From Escherichia coli (GTDB taxonomy: Bacteria; Pseudomonadota; Gammaproteobacteria; Enterobacterales; Enterobacteriaceae): a stretch of 10,264 nt of DNA. The notes under the pieces are model-generated. The model saw nothing but the letters and a program-made list of their open reading frames with translations. It had not been told where the DNA came from and ran no database searches. Location of the stretch: the NCBI RefSeq assembly GCF_003334315.1, contig NZ_QOWR01000089.1. One strand, given 5' to 3'. Position numbers and translations under genes: made by a program. Below are positions 1 through 451 of this stretch, piece by piece. The first letter of the stretch is position 1. Every line of letters begins with the position of its first letter.

Positions 1-375
1 GACGAACAGTGGGGCTACGTCGGTGCTAAATCACGTCAGCGCTGGCTGTTTTACGCGTATGACAGGATACGGAGGACGGTTGTGGCGCACGTCTTCGGTG
101 AACGCACTCTGGCCACACTGGAGCGTCTTCTGAGCCTGCTGTCGGCCTTTGAGGTCGTGGTATGGATGACGGATGGCTGGCCGCTGTATGAATCCCGCCT
201 GAAGGGAAAGCTGCACGTAATCAGCAAGCGATATACGCAGCGAATTGAGCGGCATAACCTGAATCTGAGGCAGCACCTGGCACGGCTGGGACGGAAGTCG
301 CTGTCGTTCTCAAAATCGGTGGAGCTGCATGACAAAGTCATCGGGCATTATCTGAACATAAAACACTATCAGTAA
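1..375 (+). CDS. insB: IS1 transposase InsB, C-terminal portion (5'-truncated by window edge); stop TAA at 373-375
   Basis: Open frame from base 1 in frame with ORF 82..375; translation matches the IS1 InsB C-terminus from memory. Confidence 0.9.
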
Positions 376-390
376 GTTGGAGTCATTACC
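1..390 (+). mobile_element. IS1 insertion sequence, partial (3' ~390 bp; window begins inside the element); terminus ...aagttggagtcattacc ends at 390
   Basis: Encodes the InsB C-terminus (…[70 protein letters not shown]) and ends with the characteristic IS1 terminal inverted repeat (ggtaatgactccaac, read on the complementary strand). Exact reverse complement of 9875..10264. Confidence 0.93.
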
Positions 391-451
391 AACGATAGTA
401 AGGAATAGTGGATTCCCAACTCATTCCTCCCAGCAAACCAATTGTTTTCAT
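391..451 (-). pseudogene. ygeA: 5' stub of ygeA (Asp/Glu racemase-family protein), interrupted by IS1 after ~21 codons
   Basis: Minus-strand reading gives RBS aggagagagg followed by ATG AAA ACA ATT GGT TTG CTG GGA GGA ATG AGT TGG GAA TCC ACT ATT CCT TAC TAT CGT = MKTIGLLGGMSWESTIPYYR, then runs straight into the IS1 terminus at 390. Matches the recalled YgeA N-terminus. Confidence 0.75.

Follow-up and report, generated by a model that had tools for sequence, protein, structure and literature searches.

The IS1 right half interrupting ygeA in Escherichia coli is almost certainly an IS1A/IS1F recombinant mosaic of the known IS1X2-like kind

The window, by which we mean the whole 10,264-nt stretch of DNA that was analyzed, carries an IS1 tail at each end and between them a 9.5-kb core with the E. 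coli gene order ygeA'-araE-kduDI-yqeFGHIJ-'yqeK. This core is 99.9% identical to E. coli S30 and to many other strains, commensal and clinical, and in 5,424 E. coli genomes the native locus is collinear with it. The host can be read directly from these flanking 9.5 kb, which by sequence match are E. coli chromosome. An Rfam scan of the window returned no matches. The features on which our analysis draws are the following.

1 to 375, plus strand: 3' part of insB' (InsB codons 44 to 167, the catalytic part of the InsAB' transposase) and its stop codon, from the frame-1 translation, Pfam, and NCBIfam.
1 to 163, plus strand: IS1F-type tract, with 0 differences from K-12 IS1F and 20 from IS1A (nt 18 to 160), containing all nine amino acid changes.
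164 to 371, plus strand: IS1A-type tract, with 0 differences from K-12 IS1A and 17 from IS1F (nt 164 to 336).
368 to 390, plus strand: right terminal inverted repeat (IRR) of the left copy, the same as the IS1F IRR when the IRR strings are compared.
391 to 451, minus strand: 5' remnant of ygeA (amino acid racemase), about 20 codons with the start codon at 449 to 451, disrupted at 390/391 (E. coli S30 annotation and reference junction).
Core between the ygeA and yqeK remnants: araE, kduD, kduI, yqeF, yqeG, yqeH, yqeI, yqeJ, and a small open reading frame.
9750 to 9874, minus strand: 3' remnant of yqeK (last 41 or so codons), disrupted at 9874/9875 (E. coli S30 annotation and reference junction).
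9875 to 10264, minus strand: second IS1 tail, inverted, with its IRR at 9875 to 9897 and the 3' part of insB' at 9890 to 10264.

At the left end of the window (1 to 390, plus strand) lies the right-hand part of an IS1, 390 nt long, comprising 124 C-terminal codons of InsB', a stop codon at 373 to 375, and the right inverted repeat, whose final base is 390. The element enters the window at IS1 position 379, in insB codon 44 of 167, and is truncated there by the window edge. The frame-1 translation of 1 to 375 ends in NIKHYQ and a stop. The encoded protein matches Pfam DDE_Tnp_IS1 (PF03400; E = 1.1e-69, model positions 8 to 131 of 131) and the NCBIfam IS1 family transposase model NF033558 (127.4 bits, against a cutoff of 100). 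The left-copy IRR, ...AAGTTGGAGTCATTACC, terminates precisely at 390, and both copies show the terminal inverted repeat of about 23 bp, ending in ...GTCATTACC at the element tip, by which IS1 elements are recognized. At position 372, 19 nt from the tip, the left IRR carries an IS1F-type G, whereas the right arm has the IS1A-type A; the G changes the last insB codon from CAA to CAG, which is synonymous. Residues D1, D58, and E83 of the fragment, the latter two separated by 24 residues, are all the same as in IS1A and are candidates for the catalytic residues of the D...D-24-E acidic motif that Ohta et al. reportedly described for IS1 in 2002.

The second tail shares its truncation point within IS1 with the left copy, and its 124 encoded residues are the same. 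The two tails differ at four tail positions (78, 93, 195, and 372), all synonymous or noncoding, and the reverse complement of 9875 to 9897 is the IS1A IRR. The IRR ends of both copies face inward, and the copies lie 9.48 kb apart. The left-tail reading frame and IRR are intact. Each IS1 is seen as a half element; IRL, insA, the A6C site of the -1 frameshift into insB', and the outer flanks, where an 8- to 9-bp direct target duplication would show, fall outside the window. The left halves beyond the window edges probably carry insA, the A6C frameshift site, and IRL, and both copies may be competent for transposition.

Both junctions with the chromosome are clean and lie exactly at the IS1 tip, the chromosome resuming at 391 within ygeA and ending at 9874 within yqeK. 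A megablast chromosomal match that starts at window position 383, and thus overlaps IS1 by 8 nt, was attributed to a chance gapped similarity (TCATTTATCAAACG versus TCATTACCAACG), the true junction being 390/391. This likeness between the ygeA target and the adjoining IS1 tip (window 383 to 394) is probably fortuitous. Among 5,426 complete E. coli genomes, no record covered at least 80% of the ygeA-IS1 junction and none gave a contiguous match to the yqeK-IS1 junction. Some records appeared to cover 100% of the whole window, at 97 to 98.5% identity over spans of 10.6 to 16 kb; in these, nearby but different IS1 copies had been joined, and the junction-specific searches were negative. Insertion into yqeK is nevertheless recurrent, as an IS1 sits at other positions in or beside this gene in 12 complete genomes, for example, TUM9757 at a site about 47 bp away. 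The yqeH-yqeK end of the window has a GC content of 33 to 39%, in line with the AT-rich targets that IS1 is reported to favor (PMC12077207). The simplest reading of the locus is that it records two independent, strain-specific IS1 insertions.

With respect to sequence, neither tail shows the near-identity to canonical IS1A or IS1R that would place it with those elements. The left tail differs from K-12 IS1A at 21 of 390 nt (94.6% identity) and at 9 of 124 residues, and the right tail is 94.4% identical over 390 nt, also with nine amino acid changes. In the sequence-only reading, the InsB tail had been quoted and set against a string given as canonical; the quoted string is the exact frame-1 translation of the window, the comparison string is indeed that of MG1655 IS1A, IS1E, and IS1I, and the two are, as had been stated, not identical. 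The placement of the differences in the C-terminal region of InsB has to be amended, however. The substitutions (R22S, I23L, R25K, L37M, E41G, L44M, A49P, E51D, and V54I, in fragment numbering) are real but all fall in InsB residues 65 to 97, midway along the protein, and over its final 70 residues InsB is the same as in IS1A.

The distribution of the nucleotide differences reveals the origin of the variant. Twenty of the 21 differences from IS1A cluster in nt 18 to 160, the remaining one being that at 372. When the 38 tail sites informative between IS1A and IS1F are read in order, the left arm is F-type at all 20 sites from 18 to 160, A-type at all 17 sites from 164 to 336, and F-type again at 372, so that from 164 onward 17 of 18 sites are A-type (Fisher p = 6e-10). 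The right arm shows, at the same sites, 19 F-type bases and one private base, followed by A, F, and 16 A-type bases (Fisher p = 1e-9). The left tail does not, then, carry IS1F-type bases throughout, being A-type downstream of 164. Because the differences cluster in this way, with an IS1F-identical tract followed by an IS1A-identical tract, the left tail is best understood as a mosaic of two known lineages. Within a comparison set made up of the seven named IS1 copies of K-12 and PGAP-labeled elements, we are confident that window 1 to 390 is an IS1A/IS1F recombinant mosaic, the right half of an ordinary IS1X2-like IS1, inserted in E. coli ygeA. The earlier description of a divergent iso-form thus holds insofar as the element is not of the IS1A/IS1R type, but what was taken for independent divergence is a recombinant of two known lineages.

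The clustering, together with the exact identity to IS1F, makes divergence by point mutation in situ very unlikely, and recombination, rather than convergent mutation, probably lies behind the mosaic pattern. In the proposed scenario, an IS1F-lineage tract (IS1 positions 396 to 538, approximately) would have been joined to downstream IS1A-lineage sequence, most likely by homologous recombination or gene conversion when IS1 copies of two old lineages, about 9.5% apart, shared a cell. K-12 itself harbors four IS1 sequence types, of which types 1 to 3 are at least 98.8% identical, and its IS1F is 90.5% identical to the consensus; the IS1F inverted-repeat variants have been speculated to raise mobility (PMC12903888).

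Comparison with named elements supports the same assignment. K-12 IS1F shares nt 1 to 163 with the window, including the nine non-IS1A residues, and has the IRR of the left arm, but it differs at 17 positions in nt 164 to 336, where the window is IS1A-type; moreover, its insB is a pseudogene with a W55* stop within the fragment compared here, whereas the window retains TGG. Conversely, IS1A and IS1E, which represent the K-12 consensus, share nt 164 to 371 and the last 70 InsB residues with the window, along with family, length class, and IRR, but differ from it by 20 nt and 9 amino acids in nt 18 to 160 (InsB 65 to 97). The closest named counterpart is found on the E. coli plasmid pPK5074-91kb, where an element annotated by PGAP as "IS1-like element IS1X2 family transposase" has the same 124-residue InsB' tail and the same tract order, F-type and then A-type. 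Its DNA differs by 1 nt from the right arm and by 5 nt from the left arm, which, unlike the plasmid element, carries the IS1F-type G372 in its IRR. The breakpoint between tracts lies between 160 and 195 in the left arm, between 195 and 219 in the right arm, and between 219 and 231 in pPK5074-91kb. An intact IS1 in E. coli EF7-18-51 likewise has the protein tail of the window, with DNA that is 1 to 5 nt off. The name "IS1X2-like" is used here for the half element that could be compared, on the basis of PGAP labels and the named K-12 copies; published "IS1X2" copies are 96 to 98% identical to the IS1X2 reference (PMC10569738).

Full-length elements carrying exactly these tails exist on the Enterobacter cloacae plasmid pNDM1_EC14653 and on the chromosome of E. 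coli 2017.06.04CC. Each measures 768 bp, has A6C at position 307, and keeps insA intact; each is also a patchwork in which A-type and F-type sequence alternates from end to end, with breakpoints that vary between elements. Such a patchwork is the pattern that would be expected from repeated gene conversion among co-resident copies. Elements of this type are active, as IS1X2 has caused deletions and disruption of nfsA in E. coli (PMC10569738) and has inserted into capsule genes in Klebsiella (PMC12077207). The feature is, in short, an already-known kind of IS1 iso-form and not a novel one.

We considered whether the tails might be artifacts of assembly, that is, collapsed or chimeric consensus sequences of many IS1 copies at short-read contig ends, rather than the sequence of one physical copy. 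Both ends of the window stop at a single IS1 base, and the arms have exactly 77 nt in common (window 1 to 77 and 10188 to 10264) before they diverge at a first single-nucleotide polymorphism, tail position 78. A de Bruijn contig that terminates in a k = 77 node shared by repeats has this appearance. In all probability, therefore, the window is an entire short-read contig with a repeat copy at each edge, and conclusions about either IS1 are limited accordingly. The closest chromosomal relatives have 35 to 40 IS1 matches. We nonetheless consider an artifact unlikely. Each arm occurs base for base in independent finished records, four distinct polymorphisms are kept between the arms instead of a single blended consensus, and the ygeA and yqeK junctions are clean at the exact IS1 tip. 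The exact recurrence in independent finished sequences argues that the tails are real haplotypes.

A second question concerns the pair of elements. Two IS1 copies bracketing cellular genes are familiar from the IS1-flanked composite units Tn9 and Tn1681 and from the IS1B-argF-IS1C segment of K-12. The geometry here would suit a functional composite transposon or invertible segment, as near-identical IS1 copies with intact IRR ends stand in inverted orientation on either side of the 9.48-kb araE-yqeJ segment, and IS1 transposase is able to move IS1-bordered DNA in trans (PMC12903888). Unlike in the known units, however, the araE-yqeJ block is in its native order, as in 5,424 E. coli chromosomes, and gives no sign of movement; the IS1 copies interrupt ygeA and yqeK exactly where the native neighbors continue, as is expected for independent in situ insertions, and yqeK by itself is hit by IS1 repeatedly. 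The searches turned up no second copy of the unit, and none of the searched complete E. coli genomes has the unit or either junction. Placement at a nonnative locus or a single target duplication bounding the whole would identify such a transposon; the unit lies at its native locus, and the window contains the inner flanks of the two copies. We thus regard a functional composite element as very improbable. The same low probability applies to the more specific scenario in which the 11-kb unit IS1-(ygeA')-araE-kduD-kduI-yqeF-yqeG-yqeH-yqeI-yqeJ-('yqeK)-IS1 has only recently become a composite transposon or an invertible segment, the second IS1 having just inserted. Were this scenario true, the 11-kb unit would be able to mobilize the arabinose transporter together with the kdu sugar-acid genes.

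Two independent insertions of mosaic elements remain our preferred reading, and the distribution of the tails bears on whether such elements say anything about their host. A search of the 5,426 complete E. coli genomes gave 0 exact copies of the left tail, 64 records at least 99% identical to it, and 5,668 that were 95 to 99% identical, while the right tail occurred exactly in two chromosomes and at 99% identity or more in 229 records. Within the plasmid collection, NZ_KP742988 (Salmonella enterica) and NZ_KP868647 (Enterobacter cloacae) carry the left tail at 100% identity and Klebsiella pneumoniae plasmids carry it at 99.7%, and among the best 5,000 plasmid records, Klebsiella (2,247) and Escherichia (1,825) lead. 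Tails 1 to 3 nt from the left tail were found on Klebsiella and E. coli replicons. In Shigella, a full IS1 copy of the S. flexneri plasmid pCP301 is IS1F-type (98.7%) and bears the residue patch of the window, and a sampled copy from S. dysenteriae pSD1_197 is IS1A-type (98.3%).

Separately, we noted another mosaic IS1 in yqeI of E. coli ST12468, a close chromosomal relative. Its transposase, WP_223216367.1, has the same accession as that of the Enterobacter plasmid element with the exact left tail, and this shared accession points to traffic of the iso-form between plasmids and chromosomes.

The suggestion that the variant is of the kind seen in Shigella and other Enterobacteriaceae is borne out to the extent that the patch is present in pCP301 and on plasmids of Klebsiella, Enterobacter, Salmonella, and E. 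coli, but K-12 IS1F is itself identical over nt 1 to 163. The further suggestion of a clue to host lineage fails. Although the nine residue differences from IS1A and the patch shared with S. flexneri pCP301 might bring to mind a lineage-specific, independently diverged IS1 marking a Shigella-like or non-K-12 host, this explanation has next to no probability and is refuted because exact matches cross genera, with K-12 carrying the same 163 nt, Shigella holding both lineages, and the flanking core being typical E. coli.

On the sequence matches available, the iso-form is no useful marker of host lineage, because the patch also occurs in K-12 and on broad-host plasmids. The finding itself is of low importance, as knowledge of IS1 iso-forms and mosaics is decades old and reports of IS1X2-type copies are routine. 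What it illustrates for the family is that the variable patch (InsB 65 to 97) lies between the presumed catalytic acidic residues and tolerates nine substitutions, while the last 70 residues are constant, and that the same haplotype moves on plasmids between genera, so that an IS1 variant is unusable for inferring the lineage of its host.
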